This document shows positions 1 to 57,978 of a stretch of 64,000 nucleotides of DNA, in pieces. Source of the DNA: an uncultured Gammaproteobacteria bacterium (GTDB lineage Bacteria; Patescibacteriota; Microgenomatia; Daviesbacterales; UBA10151); the NCBI GenBank assembly GCA_964500725.1, contig CAZCNP010000002.1, positions 197,347 through 261,346 on the forward strand, written 5' to 3'. Position 1 is the stretch's first letter. Each line of letters starts with the position of its first letter. The notes under the pieces were generated by a model. It saw nothing but the letters and a program-made list of their open reading frames with translations, made no database searches and had not been told where the DNA came from. A program made the translations under genes and the position numbers.

Positions 1-1045
1 ATTCAGGATAAATAGGAATAGAAAAAATATCTTTACAGATACTTTCTGCTATAGGAAAATCTCCTTTGCGGTATTTCAGATAAGAATAAGCTGGTTGTAA
101 ATGCAGAGGGGTGGGATAATATATTGCAGAGTTAATGCCTTTTTCCATTAATAGGTTAATTATTAAATTGCGTTTTGAGTGACGCAATGTGTAGACGTAA
201 TATACGTGACTGCTATTTGGAAATTTAAAGGGGCGGATGTAAATATCAGAAAGCTTCTCCGAATAATATTTGGCAATTTGCTGTTTTTTCTGATTCCAGC
301 CATCAAGATATCGTAATTTTACCCGAAGTATTGCTGCTTGTAAGTTATCTAACCGGCCGTTATAGCCCACTATCTTGTGATTGTATTTTGAAACCCTGCC
401 GTGATCCCTTAATAAAGAAATATTTTTTGCAATTTTCGAGTTGTTAGTAACTACAGCGCCTCCATCTCCAAAACATCCGAGGTTCTTTGATGGGTAAAAA
501 CTAAAACAGGCAGCATCGCCCCAGGAGCCTACTTTTTTATTCTTATAAGCAGCTCCGTGTGCTTGTGCAGCATCCTCGATGATTTTTAATTTATACTTTC
601 TGGCTATTTCCCAGATTTCATTCATGTTGGTAATCTGTCCGTAAAGGTGAACTACTATAATTGCTTTTGTTTTTTTTGTGATTTTCTTGATAATTTGATT
701 TGAATCCAGATTGTAGGTTTTGGGATCGATGTCTCCAAATACGGGGATTGCACCCATATTTACAATTGCCGCCGCCGTTGCAGTAAAGGTAAGGGTAGGG
801 CAAATTACTTCGTCTCCGTTTTTAATCCCGATAGCTTTCAGTGCAAGTTCCAGGGCTGTACTACCGGAAGAAACGCCAAAGCAATATTTTGCGTCACAAT
901 AATCTGCAAATTCTTTTTCAAATAAATGCAGCTCCTTACCTAAAATGAAGTCGCTTTCCTCGATAACCCCTTTAATAGAATTATCAATTTCTTTTTTGAG
1001 TTTTTGATACTGCAATGGTAAATTCATTAAAGGAATTTGCAGCAT
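1..1045 (-). CDS. DegT/DnrJ/EryC1/StrS-family PLP-dependent sugar aminotransferase. The C-terminus runs off the window start, so the ORF is partial and absent from the ORF track.
   Basis: My own translation of the minus strand: ATG at 1045..1043 (MLQIPLMN...). Further in, the translation reads ...[41 protein letters not shown]... and, near position 1, ...[29 protein letters not shown] and YPSKNLG are hallmark motifs of the DegT aminotransferase family. Confidence 0.8.
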
Positions 1046-1075
1046 AAGGCTTATATATTATGAATAAGAAGTTAT

Positions 1076-2344
1076 TTAGTCAATAATGAGCTTAGCTACT
1101 TTTTCTCCCAGATCAACTGCATAGTTTGTTCCTCTGTCCCAGGGATATACCATATCTAAATTGGCAAGATAGATATTTTTGAGAGGTGTTTTAAATCCTG
1201 GAACCAGCGCTGAGTGTTTTAATCCAACTACGGGTTGAGCAAAGGGATTGATAAATTTGTGGATACTAATCAGATTATTTCTGAAATTGGGATTTATTTT
1301 TAGTAAATAATTACTAAATAAGTTTAAAAGCTGATTTTTGGTCATTTTTAAATAAGGATGATGCTCGGGTAAATAATTTCCGATATAAATTATATGCTGA
1401 TTATTATAATGGATTGGATCCATAAAATTTGTATGCTCTACAAGAACTAGGAAAGGAAAATTTTTTTCGGTAATGTTTAACCAGTAAGTATTCTTTAAAA
1501 AAGGCTTTTTCAATATTAGTATCAAATTTAATGCGTGTAGGTGTTTGATTGTGTTTATTTTTTTAACATACGATTGCGGAAGATTAGGTGTAATACCGGT
1601 AAAGATAGGCGAAGGAGAAGTACAGATGATTTTATCAAACTTAAATAAGCCTTGAGCTGTTTTAATTATACAATTTTTATCTAAAGAGCGAATCGATTTA
1701 ACTTCATGTTTAAGTAGGATTTTTCCTCCTAAGTTTTCTATCTCCTTGCTAATTTCTTCCGTGAAACTGTTGAATCCTTTCTCTGGATAAGCTAAATATG
1801 CTGTTCTTGTCTTAATCCTTGCCCAGAACCAGGAAAGAGAAATTGTATTTTTGTAAATGCCAAACTTTCCGGAGAATAGAGGTTCCCAGATTGATGCTGA
1901 TGCTTTGTTTCCCATCTGTTGCCTTATCCATTCTAATGCCAGTTTATCTTCTAACTTCTTATAATTTTTCAATAACTTTAGATAAGCTAGCGCAAAGCCA
2001 ACTCTGATGCGGGAAAATAATGGGACGTATGGAAAAAATAAAAGCGATAAGGCGCTATCTAACGGTAGGATCCGTTTATTTACTAGTATATTAGTATGAG
2101 GTTTTTTAATAATAACCTTATGTTTAAGTTCTTTTGCTAAGGCTAGTATATTGTCATCATTGGTAAACCAATGGTGATAGGTTTTTTCTAATGTCCAACT
2201 CCATTTTGGACCTCTCAAACCACTTGCCATGCCTCCCACAGCAGCTTCTTTTTCAAAAATATATACGCTATGACCCTTCTGTGCTAAACGAAGTCCTGCT
2301 GTTAGGCCAGTAAATCCTGCGCCTATAATAGCAATTTTCATCAA
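1076..2344 (-). CDS. FAD/NAD(P)-binding oxidoreductase (amine-oxidase / protoporphyrinogen-oxidase-like fold)
   Basis: N-terminal Rossmann dinucleotide-binding motif MKIAIIGAGFTGLTAGLRL..VYIFEKEAAVGGMASG; length 422 aa. The substrate cannot be determined from sequence alone. Confidence 0.55.
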   Translation of the reverse strand: MMKIAIIGAGFTGLTAGLRLAQKGHSVYIFEKEAAVGGMASGLRGPKWSWTLEKTYHHWFTNDDNILALAKELKHKVIIKKPHTNILVNKRILPLDSALSLLFFPYVPLFSRIRVGFALAYLKLLKNYKKLEDKLALEWIRQQMGNKASASIWEPLFSGKFGIYKNTISLSWFWARIKTRTAYLAYPEKGFNSFTEEISKEIENLGGKILLKHEVKSIRSLDKNCIIKTAQGLFKFDKIICTSPSPIFTGITPNLPQSYVKKINTIKHLHALNLILILKKPFLKNTYWLNITEKNFPFLVLVEHTNFMDPIHYNNQHIIYIGNYLPEHHPYLKMTKNQLLNLFSNYLLKINPNFRNNLISIHKFINPFAQPVVGLKHSALVPGFKTPLKNIYLANLDMVYPWDRGTNYAVDLGEKVAKLIID

Positions 2345-55037: not shown

Positions 55038-55892
55038 ATGGATGAGCAGATTTATGAGCTGGAGATAGATTTCCTGCAACCTAACCCCTTACAACCTAGA
55101 GGATTAATTGCTCCTGAATCTTTAGCAGAACTGGCAAACTCTATAAAAGCACATGGTATTTTAGAACCAATAGTAGTTGCTAAAACTCCTGCAGGATACC
55201 AAATTATTGCAGGAGAAAGAAGATGGAGAGCTTCTAAATCCATTGGCCTTCCCAAAGTCCCAGTCATTATCAGAGAAACTAGTCCTCAAGGAATGCTTGA
55301 GATGGCAATTGTAGAAAATGTTCAAAGAATAGATTTAAATCCTTTAGAGAGAGCCCAAGCATACAGAAGATTAATGGATGAGTTTGGTTTAACAAATCAA
55401 GAAATTGCTGAAAGAGTTTCCAAAAGTCCTTCATACATTTCAAATACCATAAGACTTTTAATTTTGCCTGATGCTTTAAAGGATGCATTGATGTCTGGGG
55501 CAACTTCAGAGGGTCATGCCAGAGCTTTGGCAGCGCTTGAGGATCCTCATCTTATTATTTCAGCTTATAAAGAGGTGCTCAAGAGGAATTTATCAGTGAG
55601 GGGAGCAGAGGAGTTGGTTCGCCGCTTAAGGACAGAAAAAGGTATTGGTCCTAAGAAAATGGCTGATGTGGACGGGATGAGGATAATGTCTGAAGATGTT
55701 GATAAAATTCAGGAAAATATTAGCAATGTTCTGGCAAGAAGAGCAGATAAGTTTCATGTTAAGTGTCAATTGACTGGTAAAAGAGCAAGACTGGAACTAT
55801 TGATAGATGGTGAGCCAGGAAAAACCACTCCGGTATTAGAAGACCTGCATCAGGCAATTGTTGGGTATTTTAATTTACTTATTGGTAAGTAA
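55038..55892 (+). CDS. parB: Chromosome partitioning protein ParB/Spo0J
   Basis: LEPIVVAK...YQIIAGERRWRAS is the ParB box; HTH region GLTNQEIAERVSKSPSYISNTIRLL. Confidence 0.85.
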   Translation: MDEQIYELEIDFLQPNPLQPRGLIAPESLAELANSIKAHGILEPIVVAKTPAGYQIIAGERRWRASKSIGLPKVPVIIRETSPQGMLEMAIVENVQRIDLNPLERAQAYRRLMDEFGLTNQEIAERVSKSPSYISNTIRLLILPDALKDALMSGATSEGHARALAALEDPHLIISAYKEVLKRNLSVRGAEELVRRLRTEKGIGPKKMADVDGMRIMSEDVDKIQENISNVLARRADKFHVKCQLTGKRARLELLIDGEPGKTTPVLEDLHQAIVGYFNLLIGK

Positions 55893-56465
55893 GCCAATGT
55901 CTTTAGGTGGCCAGTAACGGAATAGTGCTCTGCCAATTAATTCTTCTTTTGTGATAGGACCCCATTCTCTGGAGTCAGAGGAGTGATTTCTATTGTCTCC
56001 AATTACATAATATTGGTTATCTCCCACTGTGATAGGGGTGTTCTCTGTGATAAATGCTCCAGCTTTTGTGGAAGCGCCAACTGGTAAATAATTTTCTTTG
56101 GTGGGTTGATTATTTATATAAATAGCTCCATTTCTAATTTCTAAGGTATTACCAGGAACAGCAATAATTCTTTTAATAAAATCCTGGGATTCATCTCTGG
56201 GGTTTCTCAAAACTACAATTTCTCCGGGTTTTGGTTCTCTTAATCTATAGCTGACTTTTTCTGTAATTAGGTAATCACCATTATGAAAGGTGGGTACCAT
56301 TGAATTGCCTGATACTTTATGAAATTGAGCAACAAATAAATAGATGGCTGCAAAAATAGCTCCAAACACTACCAGTGTTTCAAAAAACTCTACTAAATAA
56401 CCACCTAAATTTCCAAAAAAACCCTTAGGAGGAGTATTACCATAGTCTAAAGTATTAAGGTCCAT
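55875..56465 (-). CDS. lepB: Signal peptidase I (S26)
   Basis: SGNSMVPTFHNGDYLITEK (catalytic Ser box), ...GDNRNHSSDSREWG (boxes D/E). Convergent with parB; the 3' ends overlap by 18 nt. Confidence 0.85.
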   Translation of the reverse strand: MDLNTLDYGNTPPKGFFGNLGGYLVEFFETLVVFGAIFAAIYLFVAQFHKVSGNSMVPTFHNGDYLITEKVSYRLREPKPGEIVVLRNPRDESQDFIKRIIAVPGNTLEIRNGAIYINNQPTKENYLPVGASTKAGAFITENTPITVGDNQYYVIGDNRNHSSDSREWGPITKEELIGRALFRYWPPKDIGLLTNK

Positions 56466-56492
56466 ATTTTGCTATTATCTCAAACCGTATGG

Positions 56493-56521
56493 TTGGCAAG
56501 CAAGAGGGAGGGTGTTAAAAT
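56493..56521 (+). promoter_or_regulatory. Sigma70-like promoter for the tRNA locus: TTGGCA - 17 nt - TAAAAT, about 14 nt upstream of the tRNA 5' end
   Basis: ggTTGGCAagcaagagggagggtgtTAAAATtatacag read directly; spacing counted. Confidence 0.55.
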
Positions 56522-56534
56522 TATACAGTTTACT

Positions 56535-56722
56535 GGACGGATAGCTCAGTGGGTCCTGCACGAAGTGCGGACGGGAGTCTAAATGACTCCCAGGAAGAGC
56601 GCTGCATTACGGTCGTATAGCTCAGTTGGTTAGAGCGCTTCGTTCACATCGAAGAGGTCTCTGGTTCGAGTCCAGATACGACCACATTGCAGATGCCGTG
56701 GGTTCAAATCCCTCTCCGTCCA
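56535..56722 (+). tRNA. tRNA-like gene interrupted twice: a 41-nt insertion in the D-loop (56555..56595) and a 74-nt insertion in the anticodon loop that is itself a complete tRNA-Val. Mature anticodon ambiguous (ACG/ACC/AAC/CAC depending on the junction).
   Basis: Hand fold: acceptor GGACGGA/TCCGTCC (7 bp), D-stem GCTC/GAGC, anticodon stem CTGCA/TGCAG (perfect) flanking TTAC[insert]CAT, variable ATGCC, T-arm GTGGG-TTCAAAT-CCCTC (one U.U), discriminator A. Only the insertions break the cloverleaf. Confidence 0.5.
56611..56684 (+). tRNA. tRNA-Val (anticodon CAC)
   Basis: Perfect cloverleaf by hand: GGTCGTA/TACGACC acceptor, GCTC-AGTTGGTTA-GAGC D-arm, CTTCG-TTCACAT-CGAAG anticodon arm, AGGTC variable, TCTGG-TTCGAGT-CCAGA T-arm, discriminator A; CCA not encoded. 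Confidence 0.85.
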
Positions 56723-56745
56723 CAATTTTCTGATACAATTTACTA

Positions 56746-57978
56746 GTGAGGAATATTTTAAAACAAACATCTTGGTTGATCATTGCACAGGGGATAACCA
56801 GGGTAATCAGTTTTTTTTATGTGATGTTTTTGGCTAGGATTTTGGGGGTGTCTGAGTTTGGGTTATACACTGTTGCGCTGGCATATTTCTCCATAATTTC
56901 TGCTATTGCTGATTTTGGTTTTAATAGATATTTAATCAGGGAAGCTGCAACTGATAGGTCAAAAGTTGCTGTTTTACTTTGGAATATTATCCTTTTAAGG
57001 CTAACTTTAACTGCTGTTTTATTTGCTGTTTTTGCAGTAAATTTATACCTTTTAGATACTGATAAGGCAAGAGTTTCTTTAATACTGCTTGCTGCTTTGG
57101 CTATTTTACCCCAAGCGATTGCTTTTACTTTCGATGCTATATTTGTAGGTTTACAAAAGCTGCAATTTTCTGCTATTTCTCTCTTTGTTGCTAGTTTAAC
57201 AACTGCAGGAACGGGATTTGTTCTAGTAAGCCAGGGGTTTGGCAGTATAGGAGCTGTTAATGCTTTAATAATTGGGCAAGTAGTTTATGCAGTTTTTTTA
57301 TTTATATTTTTAATTAAGAATGAAAAATTAGTTTTAACTGATGTAAAGTTTGAATTAATTAAAGATGCAATCAAAGGATCATTACCTTATGGTATCTTAG
57401 GGGTCCTGGGACTTTTATATTTTAGGATAGATGCAATATTGCTTTCCTACATTAAAGGCAGTTTTGAAACAGGAATTTATGGAGCTGCTTATAAGTTTTT
57501 AGAAAGTTTAATATTTATTCCTTCAGCTTTTTCGTTAGCGTTGTTCCCTATTTTAGCAAGAAGTCATGAATCTTCTCCAGGCAATCTAAAAAGATTATAT
57601 TTCAAATCCTTAAAGATTATGTTGCTGGTTTCTTTAGTGATTGCTGCAGGTTACGTATTTATACTGCCTGAAATTATTCAGATGTTTCTTCCAAATTATC
57701 TTCCCTCAATTGGGGCAATTAAAATTTTATCACTTTCAATTCCTTTTATGTTTATTCATGTCCCTGCTGTTTCGATCCTTTTATCTACTGATAAATACTT
57801 AAAGCCTATTATTCTTTTTTCTATTCTGACATTATCTTTTAATATAATAACTAATTTAATATTTATTCCGAGTTATGGATATATTGCTGCTGCTTGGATA
57901 ACTACCTTTTCAGAAATGCTCTCTTTTGCAGTGTTTTTTTGGTTAGTTAAAATAAAGGTTTTGGATACTAAGAGTTAA
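56746..57978 (+). CDS. wzx: Wzx-type oligosaccharide flippase (MOP superfamily, polysaccharide biosynthesis protein)
   Basis: The N-terminal region WLIIAQGITRVISFFYVMFLARILGVSEFGLYTVALAYFSIISAIADFGFNRYLIREAA is typical of Wzx/RfbX; 12 TM-like segments. Confidence 0.7.
   Translation: MRNILKQTSWLIIAQGITRVISFFYVMFLARILGVSEFGLYTVALAYFSIISAIADFGFNRYLIREAATDRSKVAVLLWNIILLRLTLTAVLFAVFAVNLYLLDTDKARVSLILLAALAILPQAIAFTFDAIFVGLQKLQFSAISLFVASLTTAGTGFVLVSQGFGSIGAVNALIIGQVVYAVFLFIFLIKNEKLVLTDVKFELIKDAIKGSLPYGILGVLGLLYFRIDAILLSYIKGSFETGIYGAAYKFLESLIFIPSAFSLALFPILARSHESSPGNLKRLYFKSLKIMLLVSLVIAAGYVFILPEIIQMFLPNYLPSIGAIKILSLSIPFMFIHVPAVSILLSTDKYLKPIILFSILTLSFNIITNLIFIPSYGYIAAAWITTFSEMLSFAVFFWLVKIKVLDTKS

Follow-up and report, generated by a model that had tools for sequence, protein, structure and literature searches.

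A tRNA-Val gene nested in a tRNA-Val gene

In the window analysed here, a stretch of 64,000 nucleotides (nt) from contig CAZCNP010000002.1, positions 56535-56722 of the plus strand read and fold as one tRNA cloverleaf nested in another. The minimum free energy (MFE) of this 188-nt unit is -77.6 kcal/mol (z = -4.65), a value that none of 200 shuffled sequences attained, and the MFE structure is the nested double cloverleaf itself. ARAGORN and Rfam (RF00005, 71.4 bits) make a single call in the unit, the inner tRNA-Val(CAC) at 56611-56684/5; the outer cloverleaf is called by ARAGORN once 56555-56595 (41 nt) and a 74-nt segment are deleted in silico. An earlier interpretation, made from the letters of the window without database searches (the sequence-only reading), had described both cloverleaves, and its sequence and coordinates proved correct.

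From 5' to 3', the unit begins with nt 1-20 of the outer tRNA (56535-56554), comprising the acceptor 5' strand, the D-stem 5' strand and the 5' part of the D loop. An insert in the D loop follows (56555-56595), an element that we assign to family 1; it consists of hairpin 1 (56556-56570, CTGCAC-GAA-GTGCGG), AC, hairpin 2 (56573-56591, GGGAGTC-TAAAT-GACTCCC) and AGGA, and both hairpins had been recognized in the sequence-only reading. Outer nt 21-33 (56596-56608) supply A21, the D-stem 3' strand, G26, the anticodon-stem 5' strand CTGCA, U32 and U33. The complete inner tRNA (56611-56684) is succeeded by outer nt 34-73 (56683-56722), with CACAU, the anticodon-stem 3' strand, the variable loop, the T arm, the acceptor 3' strand and the discriminator A. 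The two genes overlap by CA (56683-56684), which ends the inner tRNA and at the same time supplies C34-A35 of the outer one. Taken as a clean insertion, the added DNA is 56609-56682, that is, AC plus nt 1-72 of the inner tRNA, placed between U33 and C34 of the outer gene; it has no flanking repeats, and its junctions are ambiguous by only 2 nt.

Annotation of 50-63 kb of the window places the unit in a series of bacterial genes, for an IleS-type synthetase, FtsW, L21, L27, ParB and signal peptidase I (lepB, 55875-56465, minus strand), followed by one for a polysaccharide flippase. The outer tRNA starts 70 nt from lepB. A consensus scan located the sigma-70-like promoter TTGGCA-N17-TAAAAT, as previously proposed, at 56493-56521 on the plus strand (10 of 12 consensus matches, with a TG extension), and relatives carry -35- and -10-like sequences upstream of the tRNA at matching distances from lepB and from the tRNA start. 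This promoter of the resident tRNA-Val presumably now drives transcription of the whole 188-nt unit.

To place the outer tRNA, we compared the lepB locus with that of related genomes. The nearest LepB relatives are encoded in metagenome-assembled genomes (MAGs) of Candidatus Daviesbacteria (Microgenomates, candidate phyla radiation (CPR)), at 51-76% identity. A single uninterrupted tRNA-Val(CAC) lies upstream of lepB at 33 of 41 related loci, in most of them starting ~65-110 nt from lepB, and the outer tRNA starts at the same place. In seven relatives (L016, L017, L032, L038, L041, L042 and L053) an uninterrupted tRNA-Val of the same kind, here type A (GGACGGATAGCTCAG.GGTAGAGCGCTGCATTCACATTGCAG...), is present. 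After removal of 1 + 41 + 74 nt, the window unit equals the tRNA-Val(CAC) of L038 at 72 of 72 nt; the L038 gene, from Daviesbacteria, also lies upstream of lepB. The promoter region and the downstream flank of the window align with those of single-tRNA relatives, the downstream flank being homologous to that of L034 and L042. By these alignments, the outer halves are orthologous to the resident tRNA-Val(CAC) gene of this locus, and the outer tRNA is that gene.

Restoration of the ancestral gene permits a single excision, TT/74 nt/CACAT (slashes mark junctions), which removes 56609-56682 and yields the loop TTCACAT with anticodon CAC. The outer anticodon called by ARAGORN varies with the position of the 74-nt cut, reproducing the list of cut-dependent anticodons drawn up from the sequence alone. 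Because only TT/.../CACAT has comparative support, we dropped Arg(ACG), Gly(ACC) and AAC as readings of the host; ACG, previously put forward for a cut at the canonical 37/38 position, finds no such support, since the orthologue gives CAC, and an outer tRNA-Gly(ACC) or tRNA-Arg(ACG) is contradicted by L038. Two further details are amended by the same orthologue. The 41-nt D-loop insertion is present as described, but the true difference from the intact gene is 42 nt, with an extra G at 56553, the one departure of the outer segments from L038. The single U.U pair in the T stem was rightly observed, but the intact L038 gene carries it as well, so it is ancestral and does not represent decay.

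The sequence-only reading had expected a pseudogene to show decay in its stems. This expectation does not follow, because type A tRNA-Val is nearly invariant across genomes whose LepB proteins are only ~60% identical, so that lack of decay is uninformative on age. Decay is present in homologous arrangements: in L027 in the T loop, with the 5' half missing; in L048 in the anticodon stem, with the 3' half missing; and in L056/L058 in the T arm. An intact outer tRNA elsewhere in related genomes, together with decay at this locus, had been named as the sign of a disrupted pseudogene; intact copies do exist in relatives, but the window copy is not visibly decayed. Among the three readings offered at the time, insertional disruption is the one that agrees with the identity of the outer halves to L038 and with their unchanged distance to the promoter and flanks.

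The inner tRNA belongs to another lineage, type B (GGTCGTA...), which is the sole tRNA at the lepB locus in L034, L033, L021 and L046. It differs by 3-11 nt from these four, and from the L027 tRNA by one compensated base pair. In L034, type B stands alone between flanks homologous to those of the window. In L027, it is followed, through the same CCA/CA junction, by the decayed 3' half of another tRNA-Val, with a mutated T loop and an anticodon stem that is partly missing; the outer 5' half is absent. Judged by its sequence, L027 is a more degraded version of the window arrangement. By the same comparisons, the inner tRNA is of foreign lineage with the same anticodon, CAC, and is taken to be the working gene.

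The intact outer stems raise the possibility that the outer tRNA is still made, with both inserts removed as introns, by archaeal-type bulge-helix-bulge (BHB) processing or an unknown bacterial activity, and the exons ligated into a second tRNA-Val(CAC). All four outer stems are intact and equal to those of a working orthologue, the nested fold is the MFE structure, precise excision at TT/.../CACAT gives back a normal loop, and the D-loop insert sits at position 20/21, a site that tolerates extra nucleotides structurally. However, direct reading of the junctions reveals no 3-4-3 BHB at either one: GGGT, after a 3-nt bulge, does not pair with GGAA before GAGC in the D loop, CGGT does not pair with ACAT in the anticodon loop, and the MFE fold has a 4x4 internal loop instead. 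Rfam detected only tRNA and rRNA, with no group I, group II or other ribozyme, in the window and 26 related loci at the gathering threshold, and only tRNA in 56450-56800 at E<=10; at 41 and 74 nt, the inserts are too short for a group I or group II intron. Splicing would require cuts 2 nt off those of RNase P and RNase Z, and its product would repeat the CAC of the inner tRNA, so that the interrupted gene is not the sole CAC gene; hairpin-bearing copies elsewhere are truncated or decayed. A spliced outer tRNA is in our estimation very improbable, and the two BHB introns suggested earlier have neither a BHB at their junctions nor an Rfam intron family to support them.

The unit could also be an assembly chimera, in which the outer 5' part and the inner tRNA were misjoined via shared tRNA k-mers. 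From one side, the Logan contigs of six sequencing runs reach no further than 56580-56582, and from the other side contigs begin at 56630-56669, which leaves 56581-56629 uncovered; we found no independent Logan contig spanning that interval. Against misjoining, the junction from the inner tRNA to the outer 3' half is present in seven independent Logan contigs (L007-L013), which therefore prove the presence of a tRNA inside the anticodon-loop region. The left-hand junction (hairpin 2-AGGAAGAGCGC..TTAC) recurs in another genome, L048, and nested units were assembled identically in two separate metagenomes, L056 and L058. The outer-5'-to-inner junction rests on this assembly and on analogous junctions in L048, L056/L058, L059 and L063. 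We consider a chimera hardly credible, the least probable of the explanations examined.

Several observations concern the read data and the locus at large. The genes flanking the unit are present in groundwater samples, for example in the SRR12113383-433 series. The six sets of Logan contigs with lepB all end in the hairpin 2 loop, ~20 nt ahead of the graph break that k-mers common to family-1 copies would cause at k=31 (Logan 31-mers assumed); a loop sequence that varies between strains, or lower coverage at the hairpin, could account for these stops. A metagenome scan with the outer 5' 20-mer GGACGGATAGCTCAGTGGGT gave 0 matches. In L014, the closest relative (LepB 76%), the tRNA-Val(CAC) by lepB is inverted relative to all other loci and directly follows a -35-like sequence, and in L024, L026, L037 and L049-L052 the place next to lepB has no tRNA. 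In L019, a MazE-type antitoxin gene and a PIN-domain gene (Pfam) lie between a lepB-proximal promoter-like sequence, GTTGTGRTGCAAGAGCTCCAA, and the tRNA-Val; this sequence occurs in two copies, one on each side of the inserted gene pair. GC skew is positive in all 4-kb bins of the window (1-64000; 0.05 to 0.29, at ~30-38% G+C), which appears to lie on one replichore, without a skew switch.

A hairpin element in the D loops of other tRNA genes

The family-1 element is unique within the window and absent from the intact lepB-locus orthologues. It is present in 11 other loci, namely L048 and ten metagenome loci (L055-L064; nine distinct, as L056 and L058 are identical) found with the pattern GGGAGTC-N5-GACTCCCAGGAAGAGC. 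All matches of this pattern search lie in tRNA D loops. Every copy occupies the D loop of a tRNA 5' part, in the order AGYGGGT-hairpin 1-AC-hairpin 2-AGGA-AGAGC. Among the 12 copies, in six tRNA classes, AC-hairpin 2-AGGA is constant, although the conservation of hairpin 2 is partly by construction, the pattern having fixed it; the GGG that precedes the element and the AC that links its hairpins are invariant although the pattern left both free. Hairpin 1 is variable. An alignment of it by MAFFT was not structure-consistent, so each copy was folded against shuffles: the eleven loci have nine different sequences, each with stronger pairing than most shuffled versions of it. A MITE-like palindromic insertion element would occur in many near-identical copies at independent sites, with terminal inverted repeats; the 12 copies here combine the constant and variable parts just described, and we saw no target duplication at them. 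From this set of sequences, the hairpin element is recurrent.

The interrupted genes are Ile-GAT (L056/L058, L063), Lys-TTT (L057, L062, L064), Thr-GGT (L061), Val-TAC (L060), Val-CAC (L048), a CAU tRNA (L059) and a Thr-TGT-like gene (L055). A complete tRNA lies 6-105 nt downstream in at least 10 of the 11 loci, the exception being L055, and its class is that of the disabled copy wherever this is readable (Ile, Lys, Val-TAC, Thr-GGT, Val-CAC; L059 is unreadable). Four units (L056, L058, L059 and L063) are fully nested like that of the window, the inner tRNA being followed by the outer 3' half; the outer tRNA of L056/L058 is not callable under any excision and has a degenerate T arm. In seven of the 11 loci the outer 3' half is missing altogether. 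Among the latter arrangements, L048 is Daviesbacteria-like (LepB 58% identical); its outer 5' part and the element in it are those of the window, and they are followed by ..TTAC, 7 nt and a complete but different tRNA-Val(CAC). L048 lacks the outer 3' half, has lost part of the anticodon stem and shares the TT/AC junction of the window.

These loci bear on whether the unit is a one-off accident, that is, a recent pseudogene formed when a stray tRNA-Val copy and an unrelated 41-nt sequence entered a tRNA gene, with no mobile system involved. The window itself would allow this, as we could find in it neither a nuclease gene nor a second copy of the hairpin nor any further tRNA remnant, and the inner tRNA has no flanking repeats and a junction ambiguity of only 2 nt. 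However, the same D-loop element, in the same position and accompanied by a second tRNA, occurs in 11 other loci and six anticodon classes; the TT/AC junction is shared with L048 and the CCA/CA junction with L027; and two independent hits in a 73-nt target, each fitting a recurrent pattern, are not expected by chance. An accident is thus already disfavoured by the recurrence, and we give it little credence.

In L056, L059 and L063, the inner tRNA stands on a helix of 9-13 bp formed by its flanks, with a different sequence each time and the pairing kept (strands AGAAAATTT/AAATTTTCT, ATCAGAAAT/ATTTCTGAT and AAGACACAAATCT/AGATTTGTGTCTT, respectively). On the 3' side of these helices, an extra hairpin and a common TC/TAAA precede the outer anticodon-stem strand. 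Such helices would hold the outer halves together, as proposed in another explanation, according to which RNase P and RNase Z free the inner tRNA while the two outer halves remain base-paired and form a tRNA-like RNA in two pieces that would itself have a role, whether as a scaffold on which the inner tRNA is processed, as a decoy or as a substrate for non-ribosomal aminoacyl transfer. In the window the halves can pair by 7 + 5 bp plus the T arm, and hairpin 1 covaries among loci. Against such a function, the outer 3' half is missing in the seven family-1 loci noted above and in almost all nuclease-bearing loci (below), and the T arm of the L056/L058 outer copy is degenerate. The ends left by RNase P and RNase Z, TTAC-OH and pCAU, make no usable anticodon loop. 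The sequence-only reading had allowed for a functional split tRNA released in this way; TTAC + CAT would give an ACC loop in a Val body, which is not Val, and the inner tRNA already provides CAC. A two-piece outer RNA with its own role is accordingly improbable.

Other features of the family-1 loci were recorded as follows. The downstream tRNA of L055 is normal up to its anticodon loop TTTGTAA (Thr-TGT-like) and then diverges for at least 100 nt, to the contig end; it may carry its own insert, possibly a group I intron, with no Rfam match in the available part. Between the element and the downstream tRNA, L055, L057 and L060 share, across three tRNA classes, the spacer motif TTTGCAGARAG.A.ATTARAAA...GATTAGATT, which may be a cassette-borne promoter (TTGCAG ... 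TAGATT). In L060, the 56-nt tRNA leader is duplicated together with tRNA nt 1-19. In L062, a gene for a 582-amino-acid (aa) serine recombinase (529-2277, minus strand; Resolvase N-terminal domain) abuts the 3' end of the tRNA-Lys that follows the family-1 stump, at which a larger integrated element may start.

We also weighed three known element types as sources of the insertions. An IS200/IS605-type insertion 3' of TTAC, reportedly the target of IS608, was rejected, as transposase and TnpB are absent and the two hairpins are unlike each other. No feature supports an integron attC-like site. A self-cleaving ribozyme in the insert was likewise set aside, the conserved core being absent and Rfam giving no match. 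Viral contigs scanned for the family-1 hairpins, and for the family-2 hairpins described below, returned 0 matches.

GIY-YIG genes and complete tRNAs in related loci

In two relatives, L028 and L040, the lepB locus contains a tRNA-Val stump that bears a D-arm hairpin (of families 2 and 3, respectively), followed by a GIY-YIG open reading frame (ORF; 84 or 87 aa, Pfam PF01541, E about 1e-15) and then by a complete tRNA-Val. At E <= 1e-8, 173 proteins are related to that of L040, almost every one 84-92 aa long; their named sources are almost always Microgenomates. We read the same design in Woesebacteria (L065-L070), Levybacteria (L071-L074), Daviesbacteria (L075 and L076), Roizmanbacteria (L081 and L082), and in L077-L080 and L085-L086: a promoter, a tRNA-Val stump, a family-3 D-arm hairpin, AGAGCG with a few nucleotides of the anticodon stem, the ORF, and a complete tRNA. 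Most cassettes occupy the ParB-lepB locus; L076, with a tRNA-Val (TAC), and L085/L086 lie elsewhere. Almost all of the nuclease-bearing loci lack the outer 3' half. Hairpin-bearing stumps analogous to that of the window are thus associated, at the level of gene arrangement, with GIY-YIG genes.

Near-identical genomes differ cleanly for one such block. The flanks of L020 and L028 are 97-98% identical, and a 296-nt block (family-2 hairpins, the remainder of the D arm and the GIY-YIG ORF) is present in L028 and absent from L020. The block lies exactly between two copies of GGGTRCTTAGCT, corresponding to tRNA nt 1-12, and L020 keeps both 12-mers in tandem, like an excision footprint. The stump acceptor strands vary by locus and are mostly unmatched to the inner tRNA; therefore, different resident genes have been hit. 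The distribution of the nuclease-bearing relatives is sporadic, and the gene is absent from most loci. Nucleases are 69-74% identical where the LepB proteins of their hosts are only 35-45% identical, whereas in the two Daviesbacteria L040 and L028 LepB is 67% identical and the nucleases just 43%. Nuclease similarity and host similarity are, on these comparisons, discordant.

In nine of nine loci (L028, L040, L065, L071, L075, L076, L077, L082 and L085), the TAG stop of the ORF is formed by nt 8-10 of the replacement tRNA. Because the ORF reads into the tRNA, an RNase P cut at the tRNA 5' end would sever the mRNA 7 nt before the stop and leave a non-stop message, which could be a built-in limit on nuclease expression. 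We asked whether the inner tRNA might be a chimera of a cassette 5' end and a resident 3' part. This was rejected for the window, L040, L065, L071, L076 and L077, in which the outer 5' acceptor strand mismatches the inner 3' strand; a chimeric inner tRNA is possible for L028 and L082.

Around the nuclease and tRNA cassette of L075 (about 60-700 nt upstream of lepB), L076 (1120-1640) and L085 (1120-1660) lie 'graveyards' of tRNA-Val remnants, including solo family-3 hairpins and a copy that misses only nt 1-7 and has its anticodon arm intact. The hairpin-bearing segment of L076 is duplicated on both sides of the cassette. In all three, further remnants lie downstream of the inner tRNA, and one of those in L085/L086 has family-3 hairpins both in the D loop and between U33 and C34, the latter being the position of the inner tRNA in the window. 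The L059 contig also encodes a GIY-YIG protein, in a free-standing gene that follows another tRNA-Met and lies outside the nested unit.

Viral contigs gave no match to a single-sequence GIY-YIG protein query, and a profile search of IMG/VR yielded 13 distant relatives at 42-57% identity (L087-L099). No tRNA lies within 1.5 kb of the relative in the seven of these 13 loci that were scanned, and there is therefore no evidence of a phage vector. A homologue (P0103) in the bacteroidote Niabella drilacis (L084, 1201-1467; 68% identical) adjoins a Bro-N domain gene and is free-standing, with no tRNA within 1.2-1.5 kb.

Proposed replacement of resident tRNA genes and its relation to known systems

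Across these loci a common pattern emerges: a resident tRNA gene is disabled at the D arm, and often at the anticodon loop, and an intact tRNA of the same specificity stands in cis, with or without a GIY-YIG gene. The unit in the window is, in our view, probably an ORF-less relic of a mobile replacement-tRNA cassette in the resident tRNA-Val(CAC) gene of a Candidatus Daviesbacteria genome. The parts of this explanation differ in strength. It is very likely that the outer gene is the resident one in a disabled state and that the nested copy does its work; that the arrangement arose via a mobile replacement cassette is rather likely; and that the GIY-YIG nuclease drives the mobility of such cassettes is a more tentative proposition, for which the odds fall slightly short of even. 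Insertional disruption, as named in the sequence-only reading, was right yet understated: the unit is one instance of a recurrent and apparently undescribed invasion and replacement of tRNA genes in CPR bacteria.

Under this explanation, a small mobile cassette, composed of a D-arm hairpin, sometimes a stand-alone GIY-YIG gene of 84-92 aa, and a complete tRNA, would land in or beside a resident tRNA gene of the same specificity and take over its function. The resident gene in the window would have been hit at two points, by a two-hairpin element in the D loop and by a type B tRNA-Val(CAC) in the anticodon loop. The resident promoter would transcribe the full unit, RNase P and a 3' nuclease would free the inner tRNA, which would decode, and the outer halves would amount to a 76-nt leader and a 38-nt trailer, neither spliced nor re-joined. 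We infer this RNA processing, the non-function of the outer halves and the nuclease-driven, homing-like spread from the arrangements compared, and likewise infer that the family-1 element in the window, which has no ORF, travels in the way that the nuclease-bearing families do. Because its nuclease gene is absent, the window copy would be a degenerate or non-autonomous form.

The process would be recurrent in Microgenomates and the CPR, with the window as one stage of turnover. The stages would run from nuclease-bearing loci through ORF-less nested units (the window), a stump only (L020) and a 3' remnant only (L027) to clean replacement (L034), with deletion of an outer half as a later stage also seen in L048. 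Homing endonuclease genes pass through a cycle of invasion, degeneration and loss, and the stages seen here fit such a cycle by analogy. A more far-reaching version, in which a GIY-YIG-driven selfish element breaks an essential tRNA gene at the D and anticodon loops, leaves structured inserts and supplies its own tRNA, so that the cell becomes dependent on the invader ('disable-and-replace'), is on present evidence unlikely.

Several points weigh against a relic of this kind. We found no relative of the L028 GIY-YIG ORF in the 64-kb window, the stretch between the outer halves is without an ORF, and all 12 family-1 loci, including that in the window, lack a nuclease gene; family 1 is linked to the GIY-YIG cassettes by shared architecture, not by shared sequence. 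The GIY-YIG proteins comprise no more than the catalytic domain, their nearest relatives of solved structure being UPF0213 proteins, which are uncharacterised, and their endonuclease or homing activity is putative. The D-arm DNA that is interrupted by the hairpin in the outer copies is retained in the inner tRNAs, and a simple account in which the hairpin destroys the nuclease target is therefore incomplete. The outer halves in the window have all stems intact and no decay from a working gene, so that continued selection on them is possible. Finally, the covariation of hairpin 1 and the differing helices around the inner tRNA suggest some selection on structure, which a relic does not explain.

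These loci have practical and biological consequences. Stumps and nested copies confuse gene finders and thus affect tRNA annotation in the CPR. At a fixed locus, one tRNA-Val type is exchanged for another irrespective of the host, and the sequences found there should therefore not serve as vertical markers. If the cassette model is true, selfish nucleases could have a third route, into an essential RNA gene, which needs neither intron nor intein since a spare gene copy comes with the nuclease, and the piles of tRNA-Val remnants in L075, L076 and L085 would be explained. If the 'disable-and-replace' version is true, tRNA genes have been serially replaced across CPR lineages and the nested tRNA of the window is a snapshot of this. 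The hairpin elements, with covarying stems at fixed positions in tRNA loops, form a defined experimental target, and the stand-alone GIY-YIG proteins (UPF0213-like), a very common and uncharacterised family, offer an experimental handle.

With respect to known forms of interrupted tRNA genes, the unit is not a BHB-intron tRNA, a host of a group I or group II intron, or a split or permuted tRNA, as it lacks their defining features; its outer halves are collinear under one promoter, with an intact tRNA of the same anticodon in between. Archaea have multi-intron, split and permuted tRNA genes, and in Thermoproteales introns have undergone 'transposition' between tRNA genes. Like those introns, the inserts described here are short, structured and related to one another, and occur at non-canonical positions, the D loop included, in many tRNA genes. 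However, archaeal systems need a BHB and a splicing endonuclease, and their interrupted genes are the only copies, whereas here there is no BHB, the hosts are bacteria and, in at least 10 of the 11 other family-1 loci, the interrupted copy is followed by an intact one.

Integrative elements that target tRNA genes bring a replacement piece of the gene, so that function is kept and the displaced original fragment lies at one end. The 296-nt block of L028, placed between two copies of tRNA nt 1-12, resembles them in this respect. Such elements span kilobases, encode an integrase and usually replace the 3' end; the units here measure 0.1-0.4 kb, have no integrase and supply the 5' part or the whole of a tRNA, which in the window is nested and not fused.

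A survey of tRNA introns in Patescibacteria reports only introns of groups I and II (PMC13011429). The group I introns occur in the same bacterial group and, as in the window, their insertions in the anticodon loop hide the gene from standard tools. Unlike the window insert, which is a tRNA in which Rfam detects no ribozyme family and which interrupts a redundant gene, they are self-splicing ribozymes in tRNAs that remain functional (PMC13011429). Our search of full-text literature turned up no account of tRNA genes nested in one another in bacteria, of hairpins inserted into D loops or of CPR cassettes that join a GIY-YIG gene to tRNA-Val. The sequence-only reading knew of no comparable case in Bacteria, which apparently holds for the literature but not for public metagenomes and MAGs, where four more nested units and about 20 related arrangements are present.

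The closest precedent for the cassette model is SegB of phage T4, a GIY-YIG homing endonuclease encoded in the tRNA gene cluster, whose site includes a conserved T-arm motif of tRNA and which drives the inheritance of adjacent tRNA genes into genomes without them, displacing recipient markers (PMC2330249). It is a precedent because a GIY-YIG enzyme recognises tRNA-gene DNA and carries tRNA genes along. As with SegB, the CPR cassettes pair a GIY-YIG gene with a tRNA, and their similarity is discordant with that of their hosts. SegB is about 220 aa long, has a DNA-binding part and lies between intact genes, whereas the CPR proteins are 84-92 aa of catalytic domain with putative activity, and their cassette lies inside a disabled tRNA gene. 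Furthermore, the CPR ORF ends within the replacement tRNA, the disabled copy has a D-arm hairpin, and the window copy has no nuclease gene. Although the absence of that gene leaves membership of the window in intron-less homing unproven, the closest working likeness that we can draw is a combination of two known behaviours: the unit is most like intron-less homing by a free-standing endonuclease cassette, joined with the 'bring your own piece' trick of elements that target tRNA genes.

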